64,000 bases of DNA from Actinomycetes bacterium (GCA_024637035.1 JAGXFW010000025.1:11626-75625); one strand, 5' to 3'. Shown: positions 1,627 to 64,000, numbered from the stretch's first letter. Numbers and translations: made by a program. Notes: generated by a model from the sequence alone, not told the origin.

Positions 1627-1842
1627 GGTCTCGCTCGACCCCCTCCGTTCCGACGATCCGGCGAACGTCCTTCACTTTCGGGCGACCCGCCACCTCTTGG
1701 CTTACATACCCGCCTACGAACTTCATGTATCCGAACGTTCAGTGCGGCGCACTCCGCTTCTCGCCACATGGCCAATGAAACGGCCGTCCGTCTCGGCGAA
1801 AGTGTCCGGTAGGCTACAACAGCGACCGTTCGGAGCTGCCAC

Positions 1843-3144: not shown

Positions 3145-3191
3145 GCCCCCGCGCGGCCGGACGCCCCCTGCTCGCGCCCCCTGCTCGCGCC

Positions 3192-6100: not shown

Positions 6101-7217
6101 GAGCGGATGTCGCACCCTTGGAGGCCCGAGCCGCGACCCCGAGAGCGGCACCCGGCGCCACGTCCCCCGTCTGCCACACCGCGGCCTCCAGAGGCGACGG
6201 GCCGGAGGTCGGCGCCACCCCGACCCCCGGAGGCGGCCGCAGCGTCACGGTGGCGTCATCGGCTGGCTCCACTGCTCCCGAGGCGAGCACCTTCCACACG
6301 CGCGCCGAGAACCCGGCGGAGTACGCGGATGAGAGATCGAGATGTTCAGTGGAGAGTTCGAGCACATAGCCCACGTGCTCTTTGGGGTCGAGCTTCTTCT
6401 TCTTGCCGCGGCCGGAGGCTGCAGCACCGGCCACAGCAGCCGCCGCGGCCGCGACGGCGCCGGCTGCCGCGCCAGCGGTCTCCCAGGGGAGGCCACCCTC
6501 TGCGCTCTGGCTGCCACCACCAACCTGAGTCGAGCCGCCATCGGTCCACTCGATATCGAGGCCCTCGAATACCGTCTGATTCTCTGCCCACAGCGCATCG
6601 AGTTGATCGAAGTAGGCGGGTCGAACCATCACACCGCGTCCCACGAGAACTCCGACATCACCAAGTGGGATGTAGTAGGTGATCGATCGGCTCATCTCTA
6701 GAACCCCGGTGAAGGACTCACCCGTCGTCTCGACAGTCCCCTCGGTGAAGTATGCCGGCTTGCCGAACAACTCGATCGTGCCGTTGCGGTTGGCAACCGG
6801 TCGGTCGGAGTAGGTGGTGAAAGGCACGGAGGTGGCTTCTCCGCCTCCGAGAGGGTCCTGAATCGGGGTATTCGCAATGCGTTCCCAGTCGAACCCGTCA
6901 AGGAACACCTCGAGATCCTTGTACGGATCTCCCGGCACGATGGATACGAACACCGATGATCCGAAGGCCGGTAGGCCGTCCTCCGTACTCTCTTCGCGCT
7001 TGACCGATGTCAGGTAGTTCGGTTCTCCGTTGGGCGCGGCGTTCTCCTTGAACTGCCACGCTGCGGGCTGCACGTTGAACTTGACGGTGGCGACGGGCTC
7101 GGCGAGCGCGGGGGCGCTCCCGGCCAGCACCGCAAAGACGACGCTCCCGACGAGAAGACAGAGTCGGACGGTTCGCGACAGAGGAGTCACCGGTGTACGC
7201 CGCGCGCGAACGCTCAC
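3192..7217 (-). CDS. Large (about 1,342 aa) signal-peptide-bearing protein of unknown function, with beta-rich middle domains, a Pro-rich linker and a Lys-rich C-terminal domain
   Basis: The 1,609-aa track ORF is trimmed to a GTG at 7217 that overlaps the upstream gene's stop as GTGA. The trimmed start is followed by a Sec-type signal peptide (VRARRTPVTPLSRTVRLCLLVGSVVFAVLAGSAPALA|EP). No Walker A, HExxH or CxxC motifs were found. Confidence 0.6.
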   Translation of the reverse strand: MSVRARRTPVTPLSRTVRLCLLVGSVVFAVLAGSAPALAEPVATVKFNVQPAAWQFKENAAPNGEPNYLTSVKREESTEDGLPAFGSSVFVSIVPGDPYKDLEVFLDGFDWERIANTPIQDPLGGGEATSVPFTTYSDRPVANRNGTIELFGKPAYFTEGTVETTGESFTGVLEMSRSITYYIPLGDVGVLVGRGVMVRPAYFDQLDALWAENQTVFEGLDIEWTDGGSTQVGGGSQSAEGGLPWETAGAAAGAVAAAAAAVAGAAASGRGKKKKLDPKEHVGYVLELSTEHLDLSSAYSAGFSARVWKVLASGAVEPADDATVTLRPPPGVGVAPTSGPSPLEAAVWQTGDVAPGAALGVAARASKGATSAQVSLTGEQESTLEVTLEPPGKSLKPNGRDVARVVAVLKPSPAAQANPAFDLETARRSIRFGRPSAADWLDVGEEVDVPDGKAIPIAASPPDPDHPVTPPESVRVAATAQLGVQILEGSVTVALERPPVLDCRPDSVEFSVGTREIAESVLWVENPGGLEWAFTSKWREGDRPVARVEIKRETASTAVVTLTEDAVALPDIGRPEEVSTLVLAADGEGWDRLERYLKVSVTREGLFVDPVGRHPDGTFHLEARGEGEPTEIDVRVYARDESGTIRLEPELSDAVEWRPGGPEKTPGHTALGFREFTIEHTGRRGVENPSATFRAVLARKLPTSGEPVPAILRASVPGFDKPEFSADVALKLLGVDTSPFSPEWKLERERCLKIIEDFAPREHQQKFRDLVVERGPLMGAEGLYEMRKRVWDISENAFSQEAADWEEIAWYIEQVEGVLDWISYCGDIALGVASGSILGSLGAIGLGMAKPVLVSAMEAYVDGRDLTWWAKQQIVLGLNVVEGQWTDPDFIAHLTGRNKAVVWLAFIGYTFAKEWALDPEHSITGAMERTLKMLRDQAIISFLRMVTGATPGATPGAKKGTPEVEAPKRPTAPKPGRKPPAPGSVVRPGQKPPRPPPAPGSVVHPGPGAKKQTVRHKPAAHAPEFDAPDPGTRAQKMAKGVKDKVTKGADGKPTVDHSTMEKIMRDPDGARELRKNDPKAWEAYDNARQEVYGKHDAQLAKWVEQNVPEAKGQKVKVEPFGDAHGTDRDYRAGIVKKDPVTGKDIFIEIPKEKWAGKSQEIFSEVTGGPKDPAKAAEWSRQRQQLPTDGYHAEASVDMSDQAWVKNPATGKLERTQTTSNLSLTKQGKSTLRDPDGLGKTYETKVAESYHDGNTLDAYKQAEKATHSFVETKTGYMAQDYKMKPTPPEMLKGMHIVEKVASGAWKPEAGDAALKAAGLGDNLPEFMNKLSGQFAGFKFAKK

Positions 7218-8053
7218 TTCCGGAACCCCGCGATCGCCGTCGAGACAGCCAGCACCAGCCCGGAAGCCACGACCACCAGACTGGGGATCAGAGTCACCAG
7301 GCTGCCCGGGTCCGAACGGGCGCCGAAGGCAGCCACGCCCAGCGAGACGAGTTGCACCCCGCCCGTCACTATCGAAGCGATCCCGGTAAGAGCGCGCAAC
7401 CGGCCACCCCCCCGGCCTGCGACCATACCCAAGACCGAGGTCGCGGCCCCCGAAAGTACCCGCATCGCAAGCATGGGCACGTTGACTGCGCCTCCCGAGA
7501 GCAGGGCGATGAGCACATCCATCACCACCGTCACCGCAAGGCCGGCGGCCGGGCGGCGCAAGTTGGGCCGGGGAGCCATTGCCAACAACGACGGCGCGGC
7601 GGCACGGGCGAGCCCGGCGACGTCGGCGGTCTGTCCCCTCGAGATCGTCTGCCAGGGCAGCGTGAGCGCCAACCCTCCGAACGAGCCGACCGAACTCACG
7701 ATACCCGCTGCCGAGGCCGTCCCAGAGAGCACGGCCGTGACCCCCCCGGAGTGGGGCCGTGGGGGCGGAGGCGGGGTCGCGGTGGGCAGAGGCGCGGCTG
7801 TCTCGGGGGGGAGCGCGGGCGGCGAGCCCGCGGGCTCCGGTGTAGCGCCCGGCGAAGCCCCCACCGACGCGATCCGGGCACCGCAGGAGATGCAGAAGGC
7901 CTTCCCGGGCACCAGAGTCGAGCCGCACTCGGAACACGCAGCGGGCATCGGGGGCGACCCCGGTCGTCGGGCACCGCACGCCGTGCAGTACAGCACGCCG
8001 GGCGCCAGCTCGGCCCCACACGTGGTGCAGAAGGTCACCGAACGTGCGCTCAC
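7214..8053 (-). CDS. Double zinc-ribbon membrane protein
   Basis: Two CxxC...CxxC ribbons (CTTCG..CTACG; CSECG..CISCG), a Pro-rich linker, then 3-4 predicted TM helices. Its stop overlaps the downstream giant gene's start (GTGA). Confidence 0.6.
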   Translation of the reverse strand: MSARSVTFCTTCGAELAPGVLYCTACGARRPGSPPMPAACSECGSTLVPGKAFCISCGARIASVGASPGATPEPAGSPPALPPETAAPLPTATPPPPPRPHSGGVTAVLSGTASAAGIVSSVGSFGGLALTLPWQTISRGQTADVAGLARAAAPSLLAMAPRPNLRRPAAGLAVTVVMDVLIALLSGGAVNVPMLAMRVLSGAATSVLGMVAGRGGGRLRALTGIASIVTGGVQLVSLGVAAFGARSDPGSLVTLIPSLVVVASGLVLAVSTAIAGFRK

Positions 8054-8300
8054 GCGCCCGACTCGGTCATCGCGTCCCCATACGCTGCCGCTGTCGACCC
8101 GCCATCCCGCCTCCGGTATCTCGGAAGTGGTACGACAATACTACGGCCGGTCAGCGCGGCACAAGCAAGGCGGGCCGGCATGTGGGGTGCATCGGACTTG
8201 GATGCGCCGCGAGAGACGCACAGAACGGCCGGGGCCCGCTACCCGCGGACCCCGGCCCGTCCTCGATCTACCTGCCCGCGGTCTCTACCTTCTCACGGGT

Positions 8301-10343
8301 CTACATCCCCGTGAAGTCCGCCTTCTTCCCGCTCACGAAAGCGCCGATCCCCTCAACCGCGGCCTTGGTCTCGGCCACCTTGCCGAAGGCCTGGTAGCCG
8401 ATCTCAAGAGCGGCGGGCAGGTCGGGGGCGCCGAGGCCGTCCTTGATGGCCGCCACGATGATGTCGATCACCTCGCGGGAGAGCACCATGCCGTCGGCCG
8501 AGACCGCCTCACCGGCCACCAGGGCTTCGTCGGCCACCAAGCTGAGGTCGGCGGCGGGCAACGGCAGGGTACCGGCGAGGCTGCGGGCGCGCTCGGCCGC
8601 GAGCCGCACGAGCGCCTCGTAATCGGCCTCGACCGCGGACACCATGCCGAGTTCCAAGGCTAGGACAGCCGGGAGCCGGTCGGCGCGAGTGATCATGTCG
8701 GTGAAGATCTTGGCCGCGGCGGGCCACTTGCGGTAGGGCACCACCAGACCACCGATGCCGGGCAGGATTCCGAGCGTGACCTCGGGCATCTGGAAGTAGG
8801 CCTTCGGATGCGCCACGATGTCGTGGCAGCGGGTCGCCAGTTCCATGCCGCCGCCGAGCGCCAGACCGTTCACGGCCGCGACAACCGGCTTGGTCATGGT
8901 ATCGAGGTGTAGGAGGAGGCTCCCTGAGTCGCGTGAGTAGTCCACGGCCGCGGGTCCGTCGCCCAACATCTCGGTGAAGCGTCCGATCTCGGCCCCGGCG
9001 CAGAAGGCGCGGGTGCCGTAGCCTACGATGACGAAACCGGTCACCGAGTCATCAGCCTCGAAGGCGCGGAGTACCGCCAGGATCTCGTTGTTGACATCGT
9101 CGCTAAGCGCGTTCATCTGGGCTGGGCGGCGGATGGTGATCACCACCACGTCGTCCAGACGATCGACTAGTACGAAGCGGTTGAAGGCGGTGGCTGCCTC
9201 ATAATGGTCGAGCAGCTCAGGGCCGGGCAGCCCCGGGCGCTCCGCGGCCAGGCGCTCGAGCACCCGGGAGACTTCGCCCTGGCCGGCCTTCGCCATGAAG
9301 TCGAGCGGGCTCTCCTTGAAGCCGAGGGCCAAGAGGGAGCCCAGGTGCAGGTCCTCGGGCGCACCGATGCCACGGGCGACGATGTCCAGACACTGGCTGA
9401 ACAATATGCCGAGCAGGCGGTCCCGCACAGCTCCGCGGAGTTCGTCGGACACCTCGACAGGCGTGCCGGGCCTATTGACCTCCCAGCGGTCGACGCTGAG
9501 GAGGAGTTCGGTGGGCTTGTAGGCCGGACTCTCCACCATCTGCCGCGTGTTGCACTCGTAGCTGATGGGGTTGCCGTTGGCCATGTTCAACACGAAGAAC
9601 GGCCCGGCGTGCACGAACTCCTCGGCCACCGCGTCCACCTGCTTCGCGGTCACGTCGCCCCGCATCAGGAGGTTGGCGGCGTCGCAGGTCCAGTTGTCGA
9701 AGATACGGTCGAGCATGAAGGCGATGGCGTCGTCGGTGACCAACGGCACCTTGCCGGTGACGGCGAACATCCAGCGCAGATAGTCGACCACTTCACGGTC
9801 GCCACCCTCCCAGGTGATCACTTCGACGGCGGGGTTGCGCCAGGCAGGGGCGAAGAAGTGGGTGATGGCCGTGCGGCCCGGCAACTTCATCTCGTCGAAG
9901 AGCCAGGAGGCGGGGATGGAGCTCGTGTTCGAGCAGATGATGGCGTCAGACGCCACGCGCTCTTCCACCATCGCGAAGATCTTCTTCTTGAGCGGGATGC
10001 TCTCCGTCGCCGCCTCGATCACCAGATCGGCATCGGCCAAGGCGTCGTAGTCGCTGCTGGTCACGACGCCTTCAAGCACCTTGGCGGCCTTCTCCGCGTT
10101 CATCTTCCCGCGCTTGATGCCCTTGTCGATATAGCTCTGAAAGCGGGGTACGACACCGGCGAGGGCTTCCTCGCGGATGTCGATCAGGGTGAGCTTCAGG
10201 CCGGGCACAGCTGTCTTGAAATAGTAGCCGATGTCGGGTCCGATGGTGCCGGCCCCGATGATGGCCACGTGCTTGGGCAGATCGGTGCGCGGCGAACCGA
10301 GCAGTGGGTTGTGGAACCCCGGATACAGTACGTTTTGACTCAT
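8301..10343 (-). CDS. fadB: Bifunctional 3-hydroxyacyl-CoA dehydrogenase / enoyl-CoA hydratase, with dehydrogenase N-terminal and hydratase C-terminal
   Basis: N-terminal NAD-binding GxGxxG (VAIIGAGTIGPDIG, 3HCDH_N). C-terminal crotonase fold (VVITIRRPAQMNAL...FCAGAEI). Confidence 0.85.
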   Translation of the reverse strand: MSQNVLYPGFHNPLLGSPRTDLPKHVAIIGAGTIGPDIGYYFKTAVPGLKLTLIDIREEALAGVVPRFQSYIDKGIKRGKMNAEKAAKVLEGVVTSSDYDALADADLVIEAATESIPLKKKIFAMVEERVASDAIICSNTSSIPASWLFDEMKLPGRTAITHFFAPAWRNPAVEVITWEGGDREVVDYLRWMFAVTGKVPLVTDDAIAFMLDRIFDNWTCDAANLLMRGDVTAKQVDAVAEEFVHAGPFFVLNMANGNPISYECNTRQMVESPAYKPTELLLSVDRWEVNRPGTPVEVSDELRGAVRDRLLGILFSQCLDIVARGIGAPEDLHLGSLLALGFKESPLDFMAKAGQGEVSRVLERLAAERPGLPGPELLDHYEAATAFNRFVLVDRLDDVVVITIRRPAQMNALSDDVNNEILAVLRAFEADDSVTGFVIVGYGTRAFCAGAEIGRFTEMLGDGPAAVDYSRDSGSLLLHLDTMTKPVVAAVNGLALGGGMELATRCHDIVAHPKAYFQMPEVTLGILPGIGGLVVPYRKWPAAAKIFTDMITRADRLPAVLALELGMVSAVEADYEALVRLAAERARSLAGTLPLPAADLSLVADEALVAGEAVSADGMVLSREVIDIIVAAIKDGLGAPDLPAALEIGYQAFGKVAETKAAVEGIGAFVSGKKADFTGM

Positions 10344-10358
10344 CTTCAGCGCACTCCC

Positions 10359-11546
10359 CTATCCGACTTTGATGACGAGGGAGGCACCTGTGTCTCCGGC
10401 GGCGCACCCGGCGAACAGGCCGAGGCCACCGCCCAGGATCGCGAGCTCCTCGATCAGTTCGATGATGCAGCGTCCGGCGGTGGGGCCCTGCGGATGTCCG
10501 TAGACCAAGGGACTACCGTAGTTGTTGAAGCTCATCGGATCGAGGTCCATCTCCTTGGCCATGTACATGTCGTTGACCGCGAAGGGGTTATGCGTCTTGA
10601 TCGCCTTCATATCGCCGAGCGAGAGGCCGGCCTGCTCCAGCGCCATACGGGCCGCGGGCACCGGGGCCGCAGGCATGAAGTACTTCTTCGCCCTGGCATA
10701 TCCGAAGGAGAGCACCTGGACGCTGGGGCCGTCGCCGCCCATCTCGCGCGCCCGCTCCTGAGTGGTGACGATGATCGAGGAGTTCCCATCGGCCGGGTGC
10801 GTCTGCGAACCGTAGGTGAGCACGCCATCAGGCACGACGGGCCTCAGGCCGGCAAGGCCCTCGGCCGTGGTCGGGAAGATGCCCTCATCCGCATCGAGTG
10901 TGATGGTCTTCTTCCGGCTTACCTGGTACTCGACAGGGAACATGTAACGTTTCTGGAAGGCGCGATCGTCGGCCATGCCGTCCATGTACTGCTCGTAGCG
11001 ACGGAGGGCGACGGCGTCGCACTCCTCGCGGGTGATGCCGGCTTCCTTGGCCACTTCCTCCGCGGTGGCCACCATGGCCATGGGCGCCCAGGGGTGTCCC
11101 TCGAAGTTGTCCATGATCCAGTCTTCGACGTCCACCTGGCCACCGGGGCCGTTGGGGTTGGGCCACGTGCTGTGGGGGCCGTTGGACGTGCGGTCGACCA
11201 TCAGGTTGAACACCAGGCCCGCCGTGCCTACTTCAACCGCCATGGCGGCCTGATACACGCAGGTGGTGGAGGTACTGCACGCCTGGCTGATCCACACGCC
11301 GGGCACGTTCTCGGCACCCATGATCGTCGCGGCCAAGGGCCCGCCGAAGAAGACATGGGGTTGCGCCACCGAGCAGCCGAAGTTGACGTAGTCGATCGAG
11401 CCGGGATCCCAGCCCTTGCCGGCCAGCCACCGGGCCGCTGTTGCCCCACCGAGGGGCAGGGAGTGCACTGTCGAGAGACTCCCCTGCCAGCGGGCGAACG
11501 GAGTGCTGTAGTACCCACCGTACGGGATGAACGCCTTCGTGAACAT
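10359..11546 (-). CDS. fadA: Acetyl-CoA C-acyltransferase (thiolase)
   Basis: Thiolase motifs with active-site Cys regions. Start refined to MFTKAF (ATG at 11546) with a GGAAGGTGGAG RBS; the longer track ORF has an unlikely N-terminal extension. Confidence 0.88.
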   Translation of the reverse strand: MFTKAFIPYGGYYSTPFARWQGSLSTVHSLPLGGATAARWLAGKGWDPGSIDYVNFGCSVAQPHVFFGGPLAATIMGAENVPGVWISQACSTSTTCVYQAAMAVEVGTAGLVFNLMVDRTSNGPHSTWPNPNGPGGQVDVEDWIMDNFEGHPWAPMAMVATAEEVAKEAGITREECDAVALRRYEQYMDGMADDRAFQKRYMFPVEYQVSRKKTITLDADEGIFPTTAEGLAGLRPVVPDGVLTYGSQTHPADGNSSIIVTTQERAREMGGDGPSVQVLSFGYARAKKYFMPAAPVPAARMALEQAGLSLGDMKAIKTHNPFAVNDMYMAKEMDLDPMSFNNYGSPLVYGHPQGPTAGRCIIELIEELAILGGGLGLFAGCAAGDTGASLVIKVG

Positions 11547-11896
11547 GAACTCCACCTTCCTATGGGCGTGACTTCGATACTGGACCGTGTCGATTGACAG
11601 CGCGGTACATCGGGGCACGGACGACGGAGCATCGAGACGACTCTCGACGGTCCGCGGCGCCTCAGTGATTATCTGTGCTAACTGGCCGTCCAGTCAAGAG
11701 TGACGCGTCCGCGTCTGGTGGCGAGGTGGTGGTGAGTGCGGCTAGGCGCTAGGTTTGCTGCTTTGCTTCCCACTAATACCCTGGCTAGGTAGTTGCATTC
11801 CCTCGCTTTCGGGTATCATTGGATTGTCAGAAGACCATAAAGTCGGCTGGCCGTGTGGGTAAGCGGCACCGCCATCGAGGCGCTGAGGAGTCAGGG

Positions 11897-12607
11897 ATGG
11901 AGATCACACAAGAAACCAGCGTAGGCCAGATCGCAACCACGATCCCCGCCTCGATCGACGTGTTCGAGCGCTTCGGGGTCGATTTCTGTTGCGGGGGAGA
12001 CAAACCCCTCTCCGAGGCGTTGAGAGGAACCGGCGTCTCCGTGGGCGACCTGCTGGCCGAGATCGAAGCTGCGGTAGCGGCCCTCGCATCCGAGCAGCGC
12101 CTCCACGAAGACTGGTCGGAACGCGATCCCTCCGCGCTCGCCGACCACGTCGAGCGCGCGCACCACACGTATCTCCGGGAGAAGCTCCCGTTCGTGGGTG
12201 AGAAGATGGCCACGGTCCTCCGCGTGCATGGCGAATTGCACCCCGAACTCTTCGAACTCGGGCGCTTGCTGGAGCAACTTCGCAAGGAGATCGAGGCCCA
12301 CCTGGAAACCGAGGAGACCGTCGTGTTCCCCGCCCTGCGCGAGATCGTCGAATCCGGCGCCTCGGGCACGAAGGGCGCGGCACTCGAGGACTCCCTGCAG
12401 ATGCTGGAGACGGAGCACGATGAGGTCGGCCGCCTCCTGAAGGGCATGCGGGGCATCACATCGAACTACCACCCGCCGGCCGGGGCCTGCGCCACGTACT
12501 CGGTGCTCTTCCGAGAACTGCAGGCGCTTGAGGCCGACATCCATAGGCACGTGCATCTGGAGAACAACATCATGTTCGCCGCGGCCCGGAAGCTGATCCG
12601 GTCGTAG
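11897..12607 (+). CDS. ric: Iron-sulfur cluster repair di-iron protein (RIC/YtfE/ScdA family)
   Basis: ScdA_N motif (FGVDFCCGG) plus a hemerythrin-like His/Glu-rich C-terminal domain. Start refined to MEITQET (ATG at 11897, GGAG upstream). Confidence 0.8.
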   Translation: MEITQETSVGQIATTIPASIDVFERFGVDFCCGGDKPLSEALRGTGVSVGDLLAEIEAAVAALASEQRLHEDWSERDPSALADHVERAHHTYLREKLPFVGEKMATVLRVHGELHPELFELGRLLEQLRKEIEAHLETEETVVFPALREIVESGASGTKGAALEDSLQMLETEHDEVGRLLKGMRGITSNYHPPAGACATYSVLFRELQALEADIHRHVHLENNIMFAAARKLIRS

Positions 12608-12685
12608 GTCGCACCCTGGGGCGGCGCTCGGGTGAACCGAGGCGCCGCTGATTGCGCTCGCGGCGCCTCGGTGGCTGGACTTTAG

Positions 12686-13861
12686 CTAGATGTGCGGCAG
12701 TACTCCGTCCCAGGCGCACATGTAGATGTGCTTCATGTCTTCCAGGGTCGGCTGGCGCTTGTTGTCACCGGTGCACGCGTCTTCCAACGCGTTCTTGGCG
12801 ATCAGATCGACCGATGCCATGAACTCGTCTTCAGGGATACCGAGGTCCTTGATCCTGGTCGGCATCCCCAAGGCCCTAGCCAGATCGAAGATCTTGTCGA
12901 TCAATCCAGAGACCAACTGGTCCACGCTGACGCCCCGCACCCCAAGAGCAAGGGCCACGTCGGCGTAGCGCGAACTCGAAACCGCCGCGTTGTAGGCGAC
13001 GACGTATGGCATGAGCGCCGCGTTGGCTCTGCCATGCGGAACCCCCCACACAGACCCCAGTTGATGGGCAAGCGAATGGTTGATGCCGAGCCCACAGTTG
13101 TTGAACGACTGCCCGGCCACGGCTGCCGCGTAGTGCATCTTCTCCCTCGCGGTGGCGTCGCTGCCATGTTCCACAGCCCTGGGTAGCCACTCGAATGCCA
13201 GTTGAAGGGCTTTGATCGCCGGTCCGTCAGAGAAGTCGTTGGCCGCCGCAGCCGCGTAGGCCTCGAGAGCATGCACGATGACATCCATCCCGGTGTTGGC
13301 GGTCACGTCGGGGGGCACTGTCAAGCAGAGCTCCGGATCGACGATCGCCATGTCGGGCACGAGTTCGTAAGAGTCGATGGACTTCTTGACCGCCGGAGTC
13401 GCCTCCGTGTCGGTGATCACGGCGCCGATGCCCACTTCGGTGCCGGTTCCGCTCGTGGACGGGATCGCGATGAAACGCGCCTTCGCTCGAAGCGGCGGGA
13501 TGGAGAAGGGAACAGACGCCACTTCCCACGTCATGTCGGGCAGTTCGTAGAACACCCACATGGCCTTGCCGGCATCGATGGAAGACCCGCCGCCCAGGCC
13601 CACGACGAGATCGGGCTGGAATTCCCTCATCATCTCCACACCCCGACCGACGGTGATCCGCGACGGATCGGGCTCGGCCTCAGCGAACACCGCCACCTCG
13701 GTGCCGTTCGCCTCCAAGAAGCTCTTCACGCGATCTACCCAGCCGAGCTTCAGCATCACCGCGTCGCTCACTATCATGGCACGGGCCGCCGGAAGCTCCG
13801 TCACCCGGGAGATCGCTCCGGCCCCATAGAACACATTACGCGGTACCGTGAACTGCATCAT
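12686..13861 (-). CDS. Iron-containing alcohol dehydrogenase
   Basis: Fe-ADH family fold: GGGSSIDAGKA nucleotide loop and a conserved His cluster (HALEAY...HSLAHQLG). Confidence 0.85.
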   Translation of the reverse strand: MMQFTVPRNVFYGAGAISRVTELPAARAMIVSDAVMLKLGWVDRVKSFLEANGTEVAVFAEAEPDPSRITVGRGVEMMREFQPDLVVGLGGGSSIDAGKAMWVFYELPDMTWEVASVPFSIPPLRAKARFIAIPSTSGTGTEVGIGAVITDTEATPAVKKSIDSYELVPDMAIVDPELCLTVPPDVTANTGMDVIVHALEAYAAAAANDFSDGPAIKALQLAFEWLPRAVEHGSDATAREKMHYAAAVAGQSFNNCGLGINHSLAHQLGSVWGVPHGRANAALMPYVVAYNAAVSSSRYADVALALGVRGVSVDQLVSGLIDKIFDLARALGMPTRIKDLGIPEDEFMASVDLIAKNALEDACTGDNKRQPTLEDMKHIYMCAWDGVLPHI

Positions 13862-13883
13862 CTCCGAACTCCTCCTCTACCGG

Positions 13884-14591
13884 TCAGACTCCCAGGAACA
13901 CCTTCTGGATCTCACTGTCGGCTTCGAGTTCCTCAGCTAGGCCCGATTTCACGATGCGTCCTTCACGCATGAGGTAGACCCTGTGGGCTACCTCGAAACT
14001 CACCTTCACGTTCTGCTCGATAAGACAGACGGCTATGTCGCCGCGCTCCCCGATCTCCTTGAGAGCCTCGATCAGGTTCTTCCTGATGATAGGCGCCAAG
14101 CCTAGAGTCGGCTCGTCCAAGAAGAGCAGCTTCGGACTTGCCATCAAGGCTCTGCCGATGGCTACCATCTGTGCTTCTCCGCCACTCAACGTACCGGCTT
14201 GCTGGTTGACCCTGTCTCGTAGGACCGGGAAGAGATCGAACACCTGGTCGATCGAAACCGTTCCGTCCTTCGGCGCGTTGTACGCTCCAAGCAGCAGATT
14301 GTCCTTCACGCTCATGAAGTCGAAGAGGTACCGTCGCTCCGGGCACTGGACCAGCCCGGTCTGCACGAGCCGCCGGTTCGATAGGCCTCGGATGCTCTGC
14401 CCGGCGAACAGCACCTCGCCGGCCCACTCGACGAGACCGGTCACGGCATTCACAAAGGTGCTCTTACCGGCGCCGTTGGGCCCAACGATCGCTATGCACT
14501 TCTCGTCTTGGTCAATATGGAGGCTGATACCCTTGACCGCCTCGATATTGCCGTACTTCACCTGTAGATCCTGGACCTCGAATAGACGCAT
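13884..14591 (-). CDS. livF: Branched-chain amino acid ABC transporter ATP-binding protein LivF
   Basis: Walker A (GPNGAGKST), signature LSGGE and Walker B, with the LivF-type C-terminus. Confidence 0.9.
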   Translation of the reverse strand: MRLFEVQDLQVKYGNIEAVKGISLHIDQDEKCIAIVGPNGAGKSTFVNAVTGLVEWAGEVLFAGQSIRGLSNRRLVQTGLVQCPERRYLFDFMSVKDNLLLGAYNAPKDGTVSIDQVFDLFPVLRDRVNQQAGTLSGGEAQMVAIGRALMASPKLLFLDEPTLGLAPIIRKNLIEALKEIGERGDIAVCLIEQNVKVSFEVAHRVYLMREGRIVKSGLAEELEADSEIQKVFLGV

Positions 14592-54112: not shown

Positions 54113-54457
54113 CGGGGTAGATTGGCTTTTGCAGGCAAAATCCTTCACAAGCCGGGTTCGACGGTGCGCGAAATGACTCGTCGCGATGGGCTTATTGACC
54201 GCCGGGCCGGTATCTCGGGTGCGCCCGGGCGGGCGTGTGCTGGCGCGTCGTCGACCGGTCGCCCGAACGGTCCGTCCTTGAATGTCCGCGGAGGGTGCAG
54301 TCGGAGTTGACCCGAGACAAGGTTCTAGACACAGCGCCCGGCAGCCGTATACGATGCGCCTCAAAGCTGAAACTTGGCAAGCAGACCGAACAGTCAGCCA
54401 GCAGTTCGGTGCCTGAGCCGCAGGTTCCAGCCCACACGCAGACACCGGGAGGGGCAA

Positions 54458-57400
54458 TGAGGCAGAGGGGTCTCGGCAGGTGTGTCTCCGTCGCTGTGTT
54501 GCTCGTAGCGCTTGGCGCTCTTACCCTCTTCCTCGGTGGTCCAATGACACCGGCTCTGGGTGTGTCTCCATCCATTTCCACAGAGCCGGGCGTGGTACGC
54601 GAACTCGTTGAAAAGCGTACGGCCAACTCTCAGACCTTCCTGCTTTCCGACGGGCGGCTGCGCGCGGTCGTCAGCAGCGGCTTCGTCAACTACCGCGACG
54701 AGAGTGGCGCCTGGCGGCAGATAGACACACGTCTGGTGGCTGGCACGAGGTCCGGCGACTACGTATCCGCCGCGACCCCGATCGAGGTCACCGCAGCTTC
54801 AGACTCGCCGGCTCGTGTCTCTCTCGCCTATCAGGACTCCACCATCACCCTCGGTCCGAAGAACGCCCGTCCCGCACAGTTCAGCGTGCGGGATTCCGTT
54901 GCCACCTATCGCGGCATCGCGACGGACGCCGACCTCACCTACCAGGTCCTCGGCGACGGCGTGAAGGAGACCATCGTCCTGCGCTCTCCCAAGGCGGCGA
55001 ACACCTACACCTTCACCATCTCCCACCCGGGCCTGCTCCTGATGCAGGATGAGACGACCGGGCAGTGGGGGCTCCGCACCGCCATGGAGCACGACCCGCT
55101 CTTCGTCCTCGGTGGCTTGAACGTCGCCGACTCCTCAGTGAACGAAGCCGGCGATCCCGCCTACTCTGATGAGGCCGAGATGCGGGTGGAGCCGGGCACC
55201 GAGGAGAGCACCGTCACCTACACCGTCCCGCGCTCCTGGCTCGACGACAAGGAGCGCGTCTACCCGGTCCTCATCGACCCCACGGTCACCGCTGTCGCCT
55301 CCACGGGGGACACATTCGTATCGAGCGCCTCCCCCAACACCAACTACGGGTCCGATGACGACATGCACGTCGGGTATTACGACTCGACCACGGGTGACTG
55401 TCGTGGCCTCGTTCGGTTCGACCTCCCTGCCGACCTCCTCACCGGCGGCTACGTGCAGAGCGCCGATCTCTACCTGCGCCAGAACTGGCAGTCGGTGCTC
55501 GCCCCGAGCGTGGCCCGTGTGGGAGCCATCGACCGGGCCTGGAGCGAATCGAGCACCTACAACTCCCTCGGTGGCCACTACATCATCGAGGCCAAGGAGG
55601 TCGCCACCGTCGCGGCCCGGGCCCAGGACCTGCATTTCGACTTCACCCAGATGGTGCAACGGTGGGCCACCGGCAAGTACGTGAACCACGGGTTCGTGAT
55701 CTACCAGGAGTGGACCGAAGGGCAGACCTACTGGCGGAAGATCCTCAGCAAGGAGCACCCGACCTCGAGTTACAGACCCAAGCTCACCATCACCTACACC
55801 GCGCCACTCGACGTGACCGCTTCCCCGTTCAACGCGAAAGGAGACGGCACGACCGATGACACCGCGGCCATACAGGGCGCCATCAACGCCGCCGACCCGA
55901 ACGGCGGAGTCGTCTACTTTCCGAGCGGCACGTACAAGGTGGGCGGCTTGAACCTCGCCAAGAGCAACGTCGTACTCCGTGGTCTGGGCACCGCGAGCGT
56001 GCTCGTGCCCGCGTCCGCGGCGCAAGGTCATCTTATCCAGGTCGGTGGGGCGACCGCCGTCACGAACGTGCTCGTCGAGAACCTCAACCTGCGCCTCCCC
56101 CCGTCGGGCGGCGGGGTGAGTGTGGCGGGCGCGGGCGGAGGCAGCAACGTGCGCATCCGTAACAACACCTTCTCCGGAGGCAACGACTCGGCGACCACTC
56201 ACGCCCTTGGTGTGGCCGCGAACTTCACCTCAGTCGAGGTCACCGACAATGACTTGGCGCTGGTCACTTCGGTGCCGCTCGACATCGAAGGGGACTCCGG
56301 GTCTGAGCGCATCGTGGCCCGGAACACGATGCCAACCGCCCCCTACCAGGCCGACCTCATGTGGGGCATCGACCGCTACCAGACGGCCATCCGCCTCTCT
56401 CAAGCCGCCTTCCCCACCTGGGCAGAAGGAGTGGTGCTGGTCTCTGGTGAGAACTACCCAGACGCGCTCTCCGCAGGTCCCCTAGCAGCGGCCTACGACG
56501 GGCCCACCCTGCTCACGCAAGCGGCTTCACTCAATGTGGGCACCAAAGCGGAGTTGCAGCGCTTGAACCCAAGTCGGGTCTTCGTCGTCGGTCTCGGCAC
56601 CTCAATATCGGACGCGGTCACACACGCCCTGCCCTCAGCCCAGGTCACTCGGCTCGCGGGCCCCAGTCGGTACGACACAGCCGCCTTGGTGGCCGCAGAG
56701 GTCAAGACCAAGCGCTCCCTCGACGGCCTCAGCGTCACCAAGGTGGTCATCGTCCCCGGTGACGGCTACCCCGATGGACTCACCTCTGGACCCATGGCGG
56801 CCAAGAACGGCTGGCCCATCCTCCTCACCCCGAAAGCCGGGCCCATACCCGCGGCCACGCAGACCGCCTATCAGACTACCCTCGGCGTGAACCAGGCCGT
56901 CGTGGTGGGCGTGAACGCCGGCGTGGCTATCCCCGGCATCGAAAGTCACCGCATCAACGGTGCCGACGTCTTTGCGACCTCCAGTCTCGTGGCTCAGTAT
57001 GCCGTGCAGAACGGCTCCTCCTATGCCCACACCGCGCTTGCCACCGGCCTCAACTTCCCTGATGCTCTGGCCGCAGGCTCCTACCTCGGCGCCGACGGAG
57101 GCGTACTGCTCCTCACCAACGGGACCTCGATCGCTCCGGACTCGGTGGCGCTCCTCGAGGCGAACTACGCCGCCCTTGATACCCTCGACTACATCGCCCT
57201 CCCCTCGCTCTGGGAGGCCGATGAGAACTGCGGCGCTTGGCTGCCCGAGGCGCCGCAGCACACCTCGGTGGGCCTCGGTGCCTTCGCGCGACACGAAATG
57301 GGTGTCAGACTCGACCAAGGAACCCTGCAGGTGGCGGTCACTGACCTCGCCATCGACTCCTTCGGCCCCTCAGCCACGCTCACCCGGGTCTACTCCTCGT

Positions 57401-60400
57401 CGCGGACCTCGGAGCGGACGGCCGAGACCCTGGGCCTCCCGGGGTGGCGGTATACGTTCGAGCAGTCGCTCAGTTTCCCGAACGCCAACAGGATCGACTA
57501 CACCGATCCAACGGGCGACATCCACATTTTCGTGCGGAGCGGCCCCTCGACGGCCGATTGGTGGACACCGCCGGCGGGCTACGCCGCCAACCTCGGGAAA
57601 GACGGCAGCGCGTGGAAGCTGAAACTCCCCGGCGGGAACACCCTCGTCTTCGACTCCTCCGGCAGGTTGCTCTCCGAGGCCGACCCCAACGGCAACACCA
57701 CCACCTACAACTACACCGGGGGCGTTATCGACAGCATCAAGGCCGCGAACGCCCAGGTGATCGACGTGACCGTGAGCGCCGGCGCGTTGACCGGTGCTGT
57801 CTACACGACAGCCGACGGCGTGCGAGCAGTCGCATACGACAAGGCGGCGAAGACCGTGACCTACTTCCCAGGTGTCTCCGGCCTTGAGCACGTCGTGAAC
57901 TACACCTACTCGGGTGATCTACTCTCATCCATCAAGGCTCTCGACTACACTACGAGCAGCGATCCGGCGGCGGCGTTCACCTATTCGTCCGATCGCCTCA
58001 CCCAGTACAAGGCGCCCGACTACAACGCCACGACCAATACCGACGCCCGCACCGAGATCGCCTACGGCACGAAGACGGCCACACTCACCGCCTACGGGTT
58101 CGTGTATTCTGCCTCGGCCATCACCGGTGCCGCGAACACCCAGATCACCCAAACCTTCACCTGGAACGATTCCGGCACCATGGCCTCGAAGACGAATCCG
58201 AAGACGTCGTCCGAGACCACGACTGAGACCTGGTACTACCAATACGAGCCGAGGACCAACCTCCCGACTAAGGAGACCGACCCGCTCGGCAAGACCCGCA
58301 CCTGGACCTACAACCTGCGTGGGAACCAACTCACCGAGACCGACCAACTGAACCGGACCACCACCTACTCGTATCCTGACACCGACCCCGGCATCCCGCA
58401 CTACCTGCAGATCCGGGTAGCTGCGGACGGAGACGACGCACGCAAAGAGGGCCCGACTGTCTACGCGACCGGGTCCGCCTGGCAGGCCGTGGGGAAGGGC
58501 TCTTCGGTGCTCAGCGAAGGCTGGCGCTTCCGGAACGTGGACATCCCCAAAGGGGCCACGGTCCGCGACGCCCGGGTCCACCTCTACGCAGCGTACGACG
58601 CGAACGGCAATCCGGCTTCGGTGGTCTCGAAGATCGGTCTGGAGGCCGCGGACAACCCCGGGGCGTGGGCGCAGACGACGCACGAGCCCATCCTCAGCAA
58701 GCTGACCACCACCCAGGCGGCCTGGTCGGTAAGTGCCTGGAAGCAGGGGCAGTGGTACTCCTCACCCGATCTCTCCGCCTCGGTCACCGAGGTGATCGGG
58801 CGCACCGGCTGGGCGGCCGGGAACTCCATGGCCGTCATCTGGGCCGATAACGGGACCGCAAGCGGCAACTACCTGAAGTCGGGCGACTACTACGGCGGGA
58901 ACCCGGCGCTCTTCACCGTCTACTACACCGTCCCCTTCGACCCAAACCGCGACGAAGTGGGCGGGGTCACCGACCCCCTCGGGTCGAAGACTACGGTCAC
59001 CCGCGACAAGAACACCAACCCCACCGAGGTCACACGCACTCTGAACGCGACCCAGTCGGAGAGCACCAAGTACACCTACGAGGACGAAGCGGTCGGCTCC
59101 GCCACCTACAAGGGCGCTCTCACACTGGAGGAGAAGCTCATCAGCGGCACATGGGGCGGTGCCAACGCTGCCACTGCCACCGACTACGACACCGGCGGCT
59201 ACGCGACGAACGGACAACCGAACAAGGTGGTCCAGAAGACGGTGGCGCTGCAGGAAGGCCAGTCCTCTCCACCCGACCTCACCACCACCTACACCTTCGA
59301 CGACTTCGGCCAACTCGAGAAGGAGACGAACCCTGACGAGGTACTTGTGGCCGACAACACCTACGACAAAGCCGGTCGGCTGCTCATTTCGATCGGCCCC
59401 GCCTTCCCCTCCGGAGGGGGTCCTGCCACCCAGGTGAAGACCCACCACGTGTACAACGGCTGGGGGTTCGAGACCGAGACCTATCAGACTTCGACCGCCG
59501 ACCCCGGGGCCGCCAAGTACAACCGCTCGGTGGTCGCCTACGACCGTGCCGGTCGGGTCCTGACGGTCAAGGATCGCTTGAGTTCCACGACGTTGGTGCG
59601 TATACGCACCAACATCTACGACGGCCGAGGACTCCTCATCTCCACCGACGACACCACGGTCAGCGACCTTGACGCGCGCACCGCGTACGACGCCCGGGGC
59701 CAGGTGGTCGCGTCGTGGGCGGGCGGCGCCTGCACGGGAACCGACTATGAGATCGCCAAGGCCACCCGCTACCTCGATGGAACCACCCCCGCCTATGACG
59801 CTCTCGGTCGAGTGACAAAGAGCGCTCCCCCGGGCGACAACCCCACCACCTTCACCTACTACGACGACGGGCGCCTTCACACCAGGGTGCTGCCCGACGG
59901 CTCGCAGGAGACCTACACCTACGACGCCGGCGGCAACCTCACGCAGACCGTCTCCACCAAGGACGGCACGAGCTCGGCCACCTACGACCTCGGCGGGCGC
60001 CGCCTGACCCAGACGAGCGCCGCCGGCCTCACCACGAGCTTCGCCTACGATCTCCTCTCCCGGATCACGAGCGCCGGCGCGGGTCCGGCCGCCTCCACCT
60101 ACGCTTACAACACCCTCGGCTGGCAACTACGGGTGACCGACGCCGACGGCTTTGCGACGGTCCGCGTCTTCGACAAACTCGGACGCACGATCTCGGAGAC
60201 GACCGCCGATGAGACCACCACCTCGACCTACGACCCCGCCGGACACCTCACGAAGCAGGTGGATCATCAAGGCCGCTGGCGGGAGCTCTCCTATGACCTC
60301 ATGGGGCGGGTGACGCGGGATCTGCAAACCTTGTCTGGCACCCCACGGGTCTCGGTGAAGGACACCACCCTCACCTACGACTCGCTCGGGCGGGTGCTCA

Positions 60401-62394
60401 CCACCTCCGACGCCGTTCGCAATCTGGGGCACACCCTGACCTACCCGGAGAACACCCCCGCCCCCACCACCGACCAGGCCGTGGTGGGCACCACAGGCAC
60501 CGACGCCGTCCAGACCACCCTCACCGTGGCTGCTGACGGATACGAGACCAGCCGAGCGAGCGAAATCTACAGCAACCCCGCACTCCCCACCATCACCCGC
60601 ACGGTGGGCCCGCGCGACACCGCGCACCGTCCGACCCAAGTCACCACCCAGACCGGCGCCTCCACCTCCATCTCTGCCCAGTACTCCTACGACACCGCCG
60701 GACGCCTGAAGCGTCAATGGGGTCCCACGGGCGCCGCGGGCTCCGGCTACCTCGCAGGTGCCGCCACCACTGACGCCTATACCTACCACCCGACCACAGG
60801 CCTAAAGACCGGCGAGAACCTCCGCCTCCAGAGCGTAGGCACGGCCGGGGTCCTCACCGCCTCCTACACCTACACGACCGCCGGCCGCCTGGCGACCGCC
60901 ACCGTGAACGGCGTCTCCGACACCACCACCTTCGACCCAGCCGGGAACCTCACCAGCTTCACCGGCACCACCCTCACCTATCAAGAGAACCGCCTGGCCA
61001 CCACCGTCACCGGTGGCGCCACCACCTACTACACCTACGATGCCGGGAAGCGCTGGCGTCTCTCCCAAGGCACGACCACCAACACGAGCGACCCGAACCG
61101 CATCCGCTACACCTACACGGCCCAAGGGCGCTTGGCCACCTACCTGAACCCGAGTACCTCCGTCTCCGCCGCCTACACCTACGACCAAGAGGGCCAGCGC
61201 ACGCAGTCTGCGGTGACCATAGGTTCGCAGACCACCGCCACCGACTTCTCCTACCAGGGACTCCAGCTGCAGAGCCTGGGAGCCACACAAAGCGGCGGCA
61301 CCAACCCCACCTCCTGGAAGGTCACCTACCTCTACGACGAGCAGGGCCGCCCCTACGGCGGTGTCTACCGGAGCCCGAAGGAGAGCATCGCCCCTCTATA
61401 CTTCGGCATCCTGACGAGTGACCGAGGCGACATCGTCTCCCTCCTCGATGCAAACGGCACCCCCTTCGCCGCCTATCGCTACGACGCCTGGGGCAAGCCC
61501 ACCGGCACGGGGAACGTCGGGACCGGCGTGTGGAGCAAGTCCACGAGTCTCATCTCCGCCGGAGTCGCAAGCGCCATCGCGACCCGACAGATCCTCCGCT
61601 ACGCGGGCTACGCTTTCGACCAAGAGAGTTCCCTCTACTACCTCTCCTCCCGGAGCTACGACCCCGTCACCCGACAGTTCCTCTCCAAGGACCTCTCCCG
61701 CAACGACGGGGAAGAGAGTGCCTACCAGTACTGCGGAGGGAACCCGGTGGCGGGGGTGGATCCTACGGGGTATCGGATGGACGAGTTCGCAACGTCGCAG
61801 GAGCGGCAGGCGGCGGAGATCTCCCGGGGTAGGATCAAGAAGGCACAGAGGGCGTCGAAGGCACGGGTGCAGCGGCGGAGATTGGACGAGAAGGGCCCCA
61901 AGCTACCTACATCTGCTGGAAACCGATTGCGGGGCCTTGGAGTTGCGCTCGATTTATTCACGGGATACGGTTCGCGAGACCGTGTGTACAGCCCATCGTC
62001 CCCCGAGACCAATGAGATGCGACATGCCTGGGGCCGAGACATGCGCGATGCCTTCGCTAAGGAAGACTACCGGTCTACCAGGTGGAAGTCGGGTCATGTT
62101 ACGCCCTTAGTGATGCAGTTGGCCTCTGGTCCCGACATCTTCAACACCATGAGCCAGGCCGGCGGTGTCTCGGGTACTGTAGCGCCCTTACCGGATGGGA
62201 GGGCCAAGTTCGAAATCACAAACGAGGCCGGGAGGGAGTCGTTCTTCAATTTCATCAACCTACCGCTTGAGCTGTTGGTGCTCGGTTCAGCCAACAGCCC
62301 AGTCATCTCGAATGCTGACAAGGAAGAGGGTCCCTGGAGCACGATACGGCAGACCTTCTACTGGTATGAGTCCATGGAGGACCTTACAAGATGA
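54458..62394 (+). CDS. RHS/YD-repeat polymorphic toxin with cell-wall-anchoring N-terminal domains and a C-terminal toxin domain of unknown family
   Basis: Start refined to ATG 54458 (GGGAGGGG RBS), followed by a signal peptide (MRQRGLGRCVSVAVLLVALGALTLFLGGPMTPALG). N-terminal domains: a DNRLRE-like domain (DGRLRA ... NTNYGSDDDMHVGYY ... LVRFDL), a pectate-lyase-like beta-helix (GDGTTDDTAAIQGAINAA ... VYFPSGTY) and three CWB2 repeats (YQTAIRLSQAAF...; SRYDTAALVAAEV...). Repeat region: many YD repeats (YTYDAGGNLTQ etc.) and an RHS core ending at YDPVTRQFLSKDLSRNDGEESAYQYCGGNPVAGVDPTGY. The final tip is a roughly 200-aa unclassified domain. Confidence 0.9.
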
Positions 62395-62864: not shown

Positions 62865-62994
62865 GTAGTCGAGTGGTGGGTAGCGGAGGAGGGAGCGGCC
62901 GCTGCCATCGCAGAGACGATCAAGCCTTTGGGGGCTGATATCGTTGTACGCCTACGAGGGCCTGGCGCAAGGCTCGCTGCGGACCCCGAACACT

Positions 62995-64000
62995 ATGGGT
63001 TTGAACACGCAAAGCGGCGGCACCAACCCCACCTCCTGGAAGATCACCTACCTCTACGACGAACAGGGCCGCCCCTACGGCGGCGTCTACCGGAGCCCGA
63101 CAGAGAGCACCACCCCCCTCTACTTCGGCATCCTGACCTCAGACCGAGGCGACATCGTCTCCCTCCTCGACGCCGCCGGCGCCCCCTTCGCCGCCTACCG
63201 CTACGACGCCTGGGGCAAGCCCACCGGCACGGGGAACGTGGGGACCGGCGTCTGGAGTAAGAGCACCGGCCTCATCAGCCTGCAGGTGGCCACCGACCTG
63301 GCCAAGCGCCAACCCCTGCGCTACGCTTCCTACTGCTACGACGCAGAGAGCTCCCTCTACTACCTCTCCTCCCGGAGCTACGACCCCACAACGAGGCAGT
63401 TCCTCTCCAAGGACCTCTCCCGCAACGACGGGGAGGAGAGTGCGTATCAGTACTGTGGGGGGAACCCGGTGGCAGGGGTGGATCCTACTGGGTATCGGAT
63501 GGACGAGTTCGCGACGTCGCAGGAGCGGCAGGCGGCGGAGATCTCCCGGGGTAGGATCAAGAAGGCGCAGAGGGCATCGAAGGCACGGGCCATGTACAGA
63601 CGACTGAACCCAGGGGAGTCTGCAGCCAAGGAGGGCACCGCGTTCTCAGCGTCCCTATCCGTGCCCGGAGGCATGCGCGGACTGCTGAACCGCTTGTCCT
63701 TCGACCCCACTCCTTATCGCTACAGGGATAAAGGGTCGAACGTAGGGGTTCCTGGTGTTCCTATCGGCGTGAGCAACGGCACGGCCGTCAACTACGGGCC
63801 CACCGGGAGGGCGGTCTCCTCTGTTCCCTACGACGGCATGTACTTGGGCGGCCTACCCGCCTACTACGATCAGACTGGCTACGGTAGTGTTGAGCCCAAC
63901 ACCCGGTATGTGCAGGGTGGTTTGGGGTTCATCGTAGGTGCCAACTTCAGTATGAACCTCTCACGGATCGGCGACGCCTACTCAGCTGCCTATGAGCCCG
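62995..64000 (+). CDS. Orphan RHS C-terminal cassette (RHS core fragment plus alternative toxin tip), partial, continues beyond the window
   Basis: A frame open from 62884 to the window end that is not in the ORF track. It encodes GTNPTSWKITYLYDEQGRPYGGVYRSP ... YYLSSRSYDPTTRQFLSKDL...GGNPVAGVDPTGYRMDEFATSQERQAAEISRGRIKKAQRASKAR, which is near-identical to residues about 2279-2470 of the upstream RHS, followed by a divergent C-terminus. The first in-frame ATG is at 62995. Confidence 0.7.
   Translation, partial: MGLNTQSGGTNPTSWKITYLYDEQGRPYGGVYRSPTESTTPLYFGILTSDRGDIVSLLDAAGAPFAAYRYDAWGKPTGTGNVGTGVWSKSTGLISLQVATDLAKRQPLRYASYCYDAESSLYYLSSRSYDPTTRQFLSKDLSRNDGEESAYQYCGGNPVAGVDPTGYRMDEFATSQERQAAEISRGRIKKAQRASKARAMYRRLNPGESAAKEGTAFSASLSVPGGMRGLLNRLSFDPTPYRYRDKGSNVGVPGVPIGVSNGTAVNYGPTGRAVSSVPYDGMYLGGLPAYYDQTGYGSVEPNTRYVQGGLGFIVGANFSMNLSRIGDAYSAAYEP

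Follow-up and report, generated by a model that had tools for sequence, protein, structure and literature searches.

WapA-Type Toxins and Their Closest Relatives

In Gram-positive bacteria, WapA-type RHS toxins are the counterpart of those deployed by type VI secretion systems (T6SS) and by contact-dependent inhibition (CDI) systems. The subject here is a gene of this kind, an RHS gene at positions 54457-62394 on the plus strand of a 64,000-nucleotide stretch of DNA, hereafter the window, from an Actinomycetes bacterium (GCA_024637035.1, JAGXFW010000025.1:11626-75625). Judged from its domains, the 2645-aa product is probably a WapA-type polymorphic toxin, that is, an RHS protein that is exported by the Sec pathway, held in the cell wall by non-covalent binding, and used in contact-dependent antagonism of neighbouring bacteria.

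What is known about such proteins? WapA proteins carry Sec signals, are associated with the wall, and mediate contact-dependent inhibition (PMC4436062, PMC8321402). How they are retained in the wall and how they gain access to their targets is still unclear (PMC8321402, PMC12704120). Bacillus subtilis WapA (2334 aa), the founder of the group, is, like the protein described here, a large RHS protein; it has a canonical signal peptide, is exported by Sec, and is anchored in the wall. Its C-terminal toxin acts in contact-dependent inhibition, and the gene that follows encodes WapI, which neutralises it (PMC4436062, PMC8321402). That toxin is a tRNase with a cytoplasmic target, whereas the candidate immunity protein at the present locus is membrane-anchored. 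Neither of those two papers reports a DNRLRE or beta-helix module in B. subtilis WapA, and literature searches found no statement on whether its wall-binding repeats are of the CWB2 type.

The closest characterised analogue is WapA-CT1 of Streptococcus suis, in which an N-domain without an assigned family, a DNRLRE domain, and LysM precede the Rhs region, and which reaches the wall fraction in a signal-peptide-dependent manner (PMC12704120). The two proteins share a Sec signal (a likely one in the present case) and an "NCWB" region made up of N-domain, DNRLRE, and wall-binding repeats (PMC12704120), followed by DUF6531, the Rhs cage, the core, a pre-toxin linker, a variable toxin, and a downstream immunity gene (a candidate in the present case). 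They differ in the anchor, which is LysM (binding peptidoglycan) in S. suis and a CWB2 triplet (binding a wall polymer) here, and in the beta-helix that lies between DNRLRE and the anchor of the present protein and has no equivalent in WapA-CT1. S. suis WapA also has two Rhs domains and linked genes for SecF-like and SrtB proteins, while here there is one cage with an insert of ~190 aa and no such neighbours, and the S. suis N-terminal cleavage motif E/PINLNTGN is not conserved in the present protein. The S. suis protein belongs to the Bacillota, has been detected in the wall fraction, and acts in competition between bacteria; the present one belongs to the Actinomycetota and is known from its sequence alone.

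Three other groups of proteins share parts of this architecture. Cwp6, Cwp8, and SlpA of Clostridioides difficile and LytC (CwlB) of B. subtilis combine three tandem CWB2 repeats of ~90-100 aa with a variable domain (PMC5817068). What they carry is either an enzyme or an S-layer domain; the present protein carries an RHS toxin cage, and its triplet is central, flanked by domains on either side. The T6SS Rhs effectors (8h8a/8h8b, RhsA 7q97, Tre23 7pq5, Tse15, and Tse5) have the same cage, plug, and core with a DPxG autocleavage site, an encapsulated polymorphic toxin, an immunity gene (again a candidate here), and orphan cassettes, but they are delivered in diderms through PAAR, VgrG, or clade domains, in place of which the present protein has a likely signal peptide and a wall-binding module. 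Finally, PF12708 proteins such as GH55 enzymes, rhamnogalacturonase A, AlgE epimerases, and phage tailspikes share the cap GDGxTDDTxAIQxAI...VYFPxGTY and the right-handed helix. Compared with these, the helix here is about half the usual length, has no match past the cap, and lacks conserved residues of a catalytic type.

The CWB2 Wall Anchor

The module that would hold the protein in the wall is a CWB2 triplet. The PF04122 (CWB2) profile, whose gathering score is 24.9, matches three stretches with 127.6 bits (E=2.7e-37), and a phmmer search of the Protein Data Bank (PDB) with this region returns Cwp6 (5j72, E=4.3e-25), Cwp8 (5j6q, E=6e-15), and the HMW chains of SlpA (E=1e-9). The repeats align with one another at 32% identity and have the invariant pattern G..PD.L..G...LLT in common. 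An earlier reading of the window, made from the sequence without database searches (the sequence-only reading), had picked out three CWB2 repeats, and these results confirm them.

In the Cwp proteins of C. difficile, CWB2 binds the polymer PSII and thereby attaches the protein to the wall non-covalently, and the occurrence of CWB2 in Actinobacteria was already known (PMC5817068). By analogy, the triplet of the RHS protein is a predicted non-covalent wall anchor. The CWB2 triplets most similar to it (up to 51% identity) are found in small metagenomic wall proteins, including YkuD L,D-transpeptidases with PG_binding_1, CAP proteins, subtilases, and amidases; the few of them that carry an organism name come from metagenome-assembled genomes (MAGs) of Actinobacteria, Coriobacteriia, and Chloroflexi. 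Because the closest relatives of its triplet sit in such enzymes, the RHS protein appears to use a widespread type of wall-enzyme anchor. A tblastn search detects no further CWB2 genes in the window. The wall-anchored delivery platform envisaged in the sequence-only reading fits the characterised WapA toxins, exported as these are by Sec and associated with the wall (PMC12704120, PMC4436062, PMC8321402).

The Leader, the N-Domain, and DNRLRE

The protein begins with a likely Sec-type signal peptide, a leader with a charged n-region and a hydropathy (Kyte-Doolittle 15-aa mean) that peaks at 2.6. The same leader is kept upstream of a 67%-identical orthologue on another metagenomic contig (L001). 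Pfam and NCBIfam profile scans find neither PAAR nor VgrG in the RHS protein. The N-domain that follows (aa 36-284) has no Pfam or NCBIfam match; it is recognised from its conservation, being 30-56% identical in relatives (P0152-P0276, P0003, and P0006), and from its AlphaFold2 (AF2) model, which is all-beta with a pLDDT of about 60-88. This model was computed for aa 36-640 from a 13-sequence alignment and has a mean pLDDT of 72.

The DNRLRE domain is matched over its full length by NF033679 (102.7 bits against a cut-off of 34, E=2e-29, profile positions 2-164 of 164, aa 285-446), as the sequence-only reading had proposed. What does it resemble? In the AF2 model this part has a pLDDT of 55-85, and Foldseek comparison with the PDB pairs it with pro-TGF-beta2 (8fxs, E=1.3e-4), with pro-BMP9 (4ycg, TMt 0.48-0.51), and with a chondroitin-sulfate-binding carbohydrate-binding module (CBM; 8wab, TMt 0.48). 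The Foldseek E-values obtained with this model are modest (1e-4 to 3e-2), in part because the query is a multi-domain model. The matches of the DNRLRE part agree with profile matches in relatives, where P0002 and P0003 match PF00688 and the distant P0006 matches PF24517 (CBM96, E=9e-22). The RHS protein itself has no match to PF24517 at E<=0.1.

A Short Beta-Helix: Enzyme or Binding Module?

Downstream of DNRLRE lies the module for which the sequence-only reading had suggested a pectate-lyase-like fold. PF12708 (Pect-lyase_RHGA_epim) matches it with 49.5 bits in the whole protein, against a cut-off of 27 (E=6e-13), and with 58.3 bits (E=1.3e-15) in a scan of the isolated domain. The match is confined to profile positions 7-66 of 213, which correspond to the N-terminal cap GDGTTDDT...VYFPSGTY, and the PDB sequence matches, to the pectin lyase 7chu, iota-carrageenase, and mannuronan C5-epimerases, are likewise limited to the cap. 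PF13229 (Beta_helix) matches the helix region weakly. In the AF2 model, aa 447-630 form short regular strands with a block-mean pLDDT mostly of 85-95. Taken together, aa 447-632 are modelled as a right-handed parallel beta-helix, in which the cap is recognisable from sequence and the remainder is supported by the predicted structure. The domain annotation that the sequence-only reading had called for thus places both the CWB2 and the beta-helix profiles above their thresholds.

Is the helix an enzyme? Alone or together with DNRLRE, it could be an active depolymerase that cuts polysaccharide of the wall or capsule, either the target's or the producer's own, and so clears a path for the cage in the manner of a tailspike. 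The above-threshold PF12708 match and the sequence matches to pectin lyase, iota-carrageenase, and the epimerases speak for this, as do the structural matches: Foldseek gives a probability of 1.0 for 8ja4 (an alginate epimerase/lyase), 9ozl/9ozd (the RbmB lyase), 7b8b, and 8ikx, and the same for polygalacturonases and the Sf6 tailspike. The crossing of the wall by WapA toxins is, moreover, an open problem (PMC12704120, PMC8321402). Those structural matches have E-values of only 1e-3 to 3e-2 and identities of 14-20%, however, and the module is ~185 aa long where the matched enzyme chains have roughly 350-500 residues. Conservation also argues against catalysis. When the helix region is aligned in 14 family members, the invariant residues are G, P, Y, A, and T only; none of the D, E, K, R, and H residues is kept throughout these homologues, and the hallmark GDG varies across the family (GTN, GND, GHD, KTG, and others). 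One Asp, in a GG(N/G/A)DS rung, is mostly conserved in the 14 homologues and leaves room for catalysis. On balance an active depolymerase seems unlikely. A structural or binding role is favoured because the helix is short, matches enzymes in its cap alone, and has no invariant charged residue; the module is more likely a binding or spacer element than a glycan-cleaving one, and the glycan-cleaving option raised in the sequence-only reading loses ground for the same reasons.

A related proposal goes further. The N-domain, DNRLRE, the helix, and perhaps the insert in the RHS shell (described below) might together form a tailspike-like head, receptor-binding or depolymerising, mounted on a wall-anchored cage. 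If true, a monoderm equipped with such a head could recognise a specific neighbour's wall polysaccharide and break through it, and the head would explain how Sec-exported WapA-type toxins of >250 kDa cross two Gram-positive walls. The conservation analysis disfavours this idea, which must be considered quite doubtful.

The helix is also seen in other company. Three non-RHS wall proteins of 700-900 aa (P0219, P0238, and P0283) combine a CWB2 triplet with a segment like the present beta-helix. The pair of helix and CWB2 may be a recurrent wall-protein cassette that was captured by the RHS gene.

The RHS Cage and Its Insert

From DUF6531 onward the protein has the parts of an RHS protein. The DUF6531 plug is matched by PF20148 with E=1.7e-4 and 22.3 bits, slightly under the cut-off of 24.1, and the orthologues P0001 and P0002 score above it. 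PF05593 (RHS_repeat) matches in 7 stretches (E=7.6e-32), TIGR01643 (YD_repeat) also matches, and in the PDB the region finds the Rhs cages 8h8a/8h8b (E=9e-33) as well as 8qja, 7q97, 7pq5, and Tse15. The Rhs-associated core is matched by TIGR03696 with 60.2 bits against 32.5, and at its C-terminal end by NF041261; its DPTG occupies aa 2435-2438.

The shell carries an insert of ~190 aa (aa 1305-1495) that is characteristic of the CWB2-bearing subfamily. It is present in P0151, P0153-155, P0157, P0158, P0160, P0161, and L002, where it is 31-50% identical with 21 invariant positions, and is absent from all of the ~50 sister-group RHS clusters. It has no significant Pfam match (the best is DUF3344, E=0.027), and a profile search of the PDB is empty. 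The idea of a second DNRLRE-like domain found no support, with a BLAST comparison that is not significant, an hhalign probability of 1.9%, and that same empty profile search. It may be a binding domain that is displayed externally. The RHS shell of L002 contains another insert, CBM-like, farther along.

Does the cage remain attached to its anchor? The motif x/P(V/I)xxxxG(E/N) marks N-terminal cleavage in T6SS Rhs proteins and in S. suis WapA (PMC11461821, PMC12704120). An alternative to a wall-held weapon is a released one: the hold by CWB2 would be transient, and the autocleaved cage would diffuse away to act remotely, perhaps on targets other than bacteria, in the manner of ABC/Tc-like toxins. 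Both in Tc toxins and in T6SS effectors, the RHS cage does work after release, and S. suis WapA is cut at the start of DUF6531, with fragments that can be enriched from the supernatant (PMC12704120). At the corresponding position, however, the present protein reads GVRLDQGT in place of P(V/I)xxxxG(E/N), and with the motif diverged in this way release of the cage from the anchor cannot be predicted. Furthermore, an immunity-like gene and an orphan cassette, both found downstream, are typical of interbacterial systems, and WapA is wall-associated in both characterised species (PMC8321402, PMC12704120). A released toxin is thus a very improbable reading of the locus.

The Toxin Tip, a Candidate Immunity Gene, and an Orphan Cassette

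Beyond the core, a pre-toxin linker of 39 aa leads to the predicted C-terminal toxin, whose stop codon overlaps the start of the next open reading frame (ORF) in an ATGA. The 157-aa product of this ORF begins with a transmembrane (TM) or signal segment, AIAVALALIGLTAALMWPF, with a Kyte-Doolittle peak of 2.55, and has no Pfam match. It is regarded as a candidate immunity protein. The next coding segment is a classic orphan rhs-CT cassette, as judged from sequence comparison. Its ORF starts at 62944; nucleotides 63006-63589 are 87% identical over 585 nt to 61284-61867, the linker copy is 89.7% identical over 39 aa by tblastn, and the translation diverges from that of the RHS protein after ...KAQRASKAR to enter a different tip. 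Two short proteins from elsewhere, P0149 and P0150, contain the 39-aa linker too.

The base composition of these segments departs from that of the gene, with a GC content of 0.569 for the toxin tip (61888-62391), 0.611 for the orphan tip, and 0.614 for the immunity ORF, against 0.653 for the RHS gene. The low GC of the two tips and the immunity ORF is consistent with horizontally exchanged toxin-immunity modules. A unique low-GC tip, an overlapping downstream ORF, and an orphan cassette are hallmarks of polymorphic toxins, and here they occur together. The features of the locus are collected in Table 1.

Table 1. Predicted features of the RHS gene and the segment downstream of it, in window coordinates
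Feature	Coordinates	Strand	Residues	Basis or remarks
Signal peptide, likely Sec-type	54457..54561	+	1-35	MRQRGLGR, hydrophobic core, PALG/VS; read from sequence
N-domain, all-beta, no named family	54562..55308	+	36-284	AF2 model and conservation
DNRLRE domain, beta-sandwich resembling TGF-beta prodomain and CBM96	55309..55794	+	285-446	NF033679
Short right-handed beta-helix	55795..56352	+	447-632	Pectate-lyase superfamily cap, then ~6 rungs
CWB2 repeat 1	56362..56661	+	636-735	Best PF04122 stretch, aa 636-721; matches to Cwp6 and Cwp8
CWB2 repeat 2	56662..56964	+	736-836	PF04122 and self-alignment; approximate boundaries
CWB2 repeat 3	56965..57231	+	837-925	PF04122 and self-alignment; approximate boundaries
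DUF6531, N-terminal plug/lid of the RHS cage	57319..57531	+	955-1025	PF20148
RHS/YD-repeat shell	57532..61566	+	1026-2370	PF05593, TIGR01643
Insert of ~190 aa in the RHS shell	58369..58941	+	1305-1495	No family assigned
Rhs-associated core	61567..61770	+	2371-2438	TIGR03696; ends ...NPVAGVDPTG
Pre-toxin linker and C-terminal toxin	61771..62394	+	2439-2477 (linker), 2478-2645 (toxin)	Includes the stop codon
Candidate immunity gene, 157 aa	62391..62864	+		ATGA overlap with the RHS stop; N-terminal TM/signal segment
Orphan rhs-CT cassette	63006..63999	+		Last YD repeats, core, linker copy, and a different tip; leaves the window

A Proposed Mechanism

How might these parts work together? After Sec export by way of the leader, the CWB2 triplet would bind the producer's secondary wall polymer, as CWB2 binds PSII in C. 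difficile, and this binding would fix the protein of ~280 kDa in the producer's wall. The N-domain, the DNRLRE/CBM96-like sandwich, and the helix would act as non-enzymatic glycan-binding or spacer elements, and such distal modules would serve either in recognising the target surface or in transit through and positioning within the producer's own wall. The RHS cage would enclose the toxin, which the aspartyl protease of the core would free, as it does in Rhs effectors of solved structure and in WapA of S. suis (PMC12704120). The toxin would then act at the envelope, on membrane or wall, and not in the cytoplasm. An envelope target is probable because the candidate immunity protein is predicted to be membrane-anchored with an extracytoplasmic body.

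Several points weigh against this picture of a WapA-type toxin. The predicted toxin has no match in Pfam (E<=1), NCBIfam, or the PDB, its relatives are limited to the first ~39 aa, which are the linker, so that no homologues of the tip itself were found, and its single-sequence AF2 model has a pLDDT of 39 and no usable fold. The immunity protein is a candidate by position only. At the other end of the protein, the signal peptide was called by eye and from hydropathy. Neither SecF-like nor SrtB accessory genes of the kind linked to WapA in S. suis are seen in the window. To these are added the mostly conserved Asp of the helix and the diverged cleavage position, both described above.

A Small Family With a Conserved Architecture

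Is the combination of modules a peculiarity of a single gene? A word-indexed protein search gives that impression: one run of it gave P0001-P0003 only, and a search based on the CWB2 region yielded CWB2 wall proteins alone and missed even P0001 and P0002. Such a search scores only 8000 candidates, and it missed all of P0152-P0161. An exhaustive HMMER search with aa 36-1030 against 1.84 billion representatives, followed by local domain mapping, found a wider family, and the near-uniqueness is therefore an artefact of the word-indexed method. At least 12 clusters at 50% identity have the complete order of N-domain, DNRLRE, beta-helix, CWB2 triplet, DUF6531, and RHS, namely P0151 (94% identical to the present protein), P0001 (67%), and P0152-P0161 (40-49%), with several fragments besides. 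Full-length members have 2300-3000 aa. P0151 is NCBI MBU2604254.1, where it is labelled [quoted passage not shown] A pair of paralogues, P0160 and P0161, lies on a single 1.36-Mb contig, and these two, together with P0158, have an extra segment of ~230 aa without Pfam annotation between the CWB2 region and DUF6531.

Some 50 more clusters form a sister group. They have the N-domain, DNRLRE, DUF6531, RHS, and core in common with the family, and between DNRLRE and the cage they carry another middle module, of 180-750 aa. No Pfam domains are found in these modules, save weak matches to CBM_56 and Ig in one of them, and no alternative anchor can be named from them. The architecture that the sequence-only reading had called unusual is thus rare and in that sense unusual, but it is not unique, and a similar layout is found in S. 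suis WapA. Full-text literature searches found no paper linking CWB2 or a pectate-lyase helix with RHS.

Of course, a fusion known from metagenomes has to be weighed against the chance that its N terminus is an artefact, produced when a wall protein and an RHS gene are joined by chimeric assembly or by over-extension of the ORF. The source is a metagenome assembly, and in two relatives the gene is broken: the orthologue P0001 on L001 (JGI 3300015370, 1-14155) terminates within the insert domain, with 150 nt of contig left, and the L002 gene is split by a frameshift. Evidently, RHS genes are hard to assemble or often disrupted. The present ORF is continuous, however, with a GC content and codon bias that are uniform over all of its domains (GC at third codon positions, GC3, of 0.84). 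Across JGI, ENA, and NCBI, the same domain order recurs in at least 12 independent clusters, among whose contigs are some of 1.36 and 1.77 Mb, and the orthologue on L001 lies in a syntenic context, preceded as in the window by genes for 2-Hacid_dh, MFS/ATG22, DUF72, and PALP proteins. An assembly chimera was rejected on the strength of these independent clusters and of an identical protein in public databases, and an artefactual N terminus is hardly conceivable. As the architecture is kept at 40-94% identity in at least 12 clusters, it is a selected fusion. Judged from these sequences, it is rare but not unique, a real, conserved, and lineage-restricted fusion.

Gene Model, Host, and Neighbourhood

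The RHS ORF is open from 54235. A GGAGGGG sequence lies seven bases 5' of the ATG at 54457, which is taken as the start, and the stop codon is at 62392-62394. The interval singled out in the sequence-only reading, 54458-57300, corresponds to aa 1-948 and begins one base after the A of this ATG. Public databases already contain a 2645-aa protein that is identical to it and has the same start (P0289, in NCBI and JGI, on a 78.6-kb contig), and the gene model therefore agrees with the public gene call.

Which organism carries the gene? SucC from the window is 95% identical to that of an Actinomycetota MAG (JAHJSA01), 82% to those of two Thermoleophilia MAGs, and ~60% to those of Gaiellales, Gaiella, and other Thermoleophilia. 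By this marker, the contig is that of an uncultured Thermoleophilia-like member of the Actinomycetota, a placement with which a monoderm envelope is consistent. The sequence-only reading had hinted at a monoderm, deep-branching Actinobacteria-like host among other options, and SucC points the same way; it had put the GC content at roughly 70%, whereas the measured value is 65.3%, in the window and in the RHS gene alike.

The genes that flank the RHS gene are those of ordinary metabolism and transport. Elsewhere in the window, on the minus strand at 3192-8021, lies an ORF of 1609 aa with a coding-like GC3 of 0.81 and zero Pfam matches at E<=0.01.

What the Locus Adds to the Biology of WapA Toxins

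Overall, the RHS protein is a recognisable WapA variant that belongs to a small family and is under-annotated in public databases, and it introduces no new principle. Part of its value lies in annotation, given that the near-identical P0151 is labelled merely as a protein with cell wall-binding repeats. The locus presents an RHS toxin with the CWB2 type of anchor that is used by ordinary wall enzymes, the transpeptidases, amidases, and proteases of actinobacterial and Chloroflexi MAGs. It also shows that the N-terminal wall and surface region of these toxins is modular, with a conserved head of N-domain and DNRLRE followed by exchangeable middle modules: LysM in S. suis, unannotated segments in the sister clusters, and the pair of beta-helix and CWB2 triplet here. 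With it, the WapA-type system would extend to uncultured, Thermoleophilia-like Actinomycetota.

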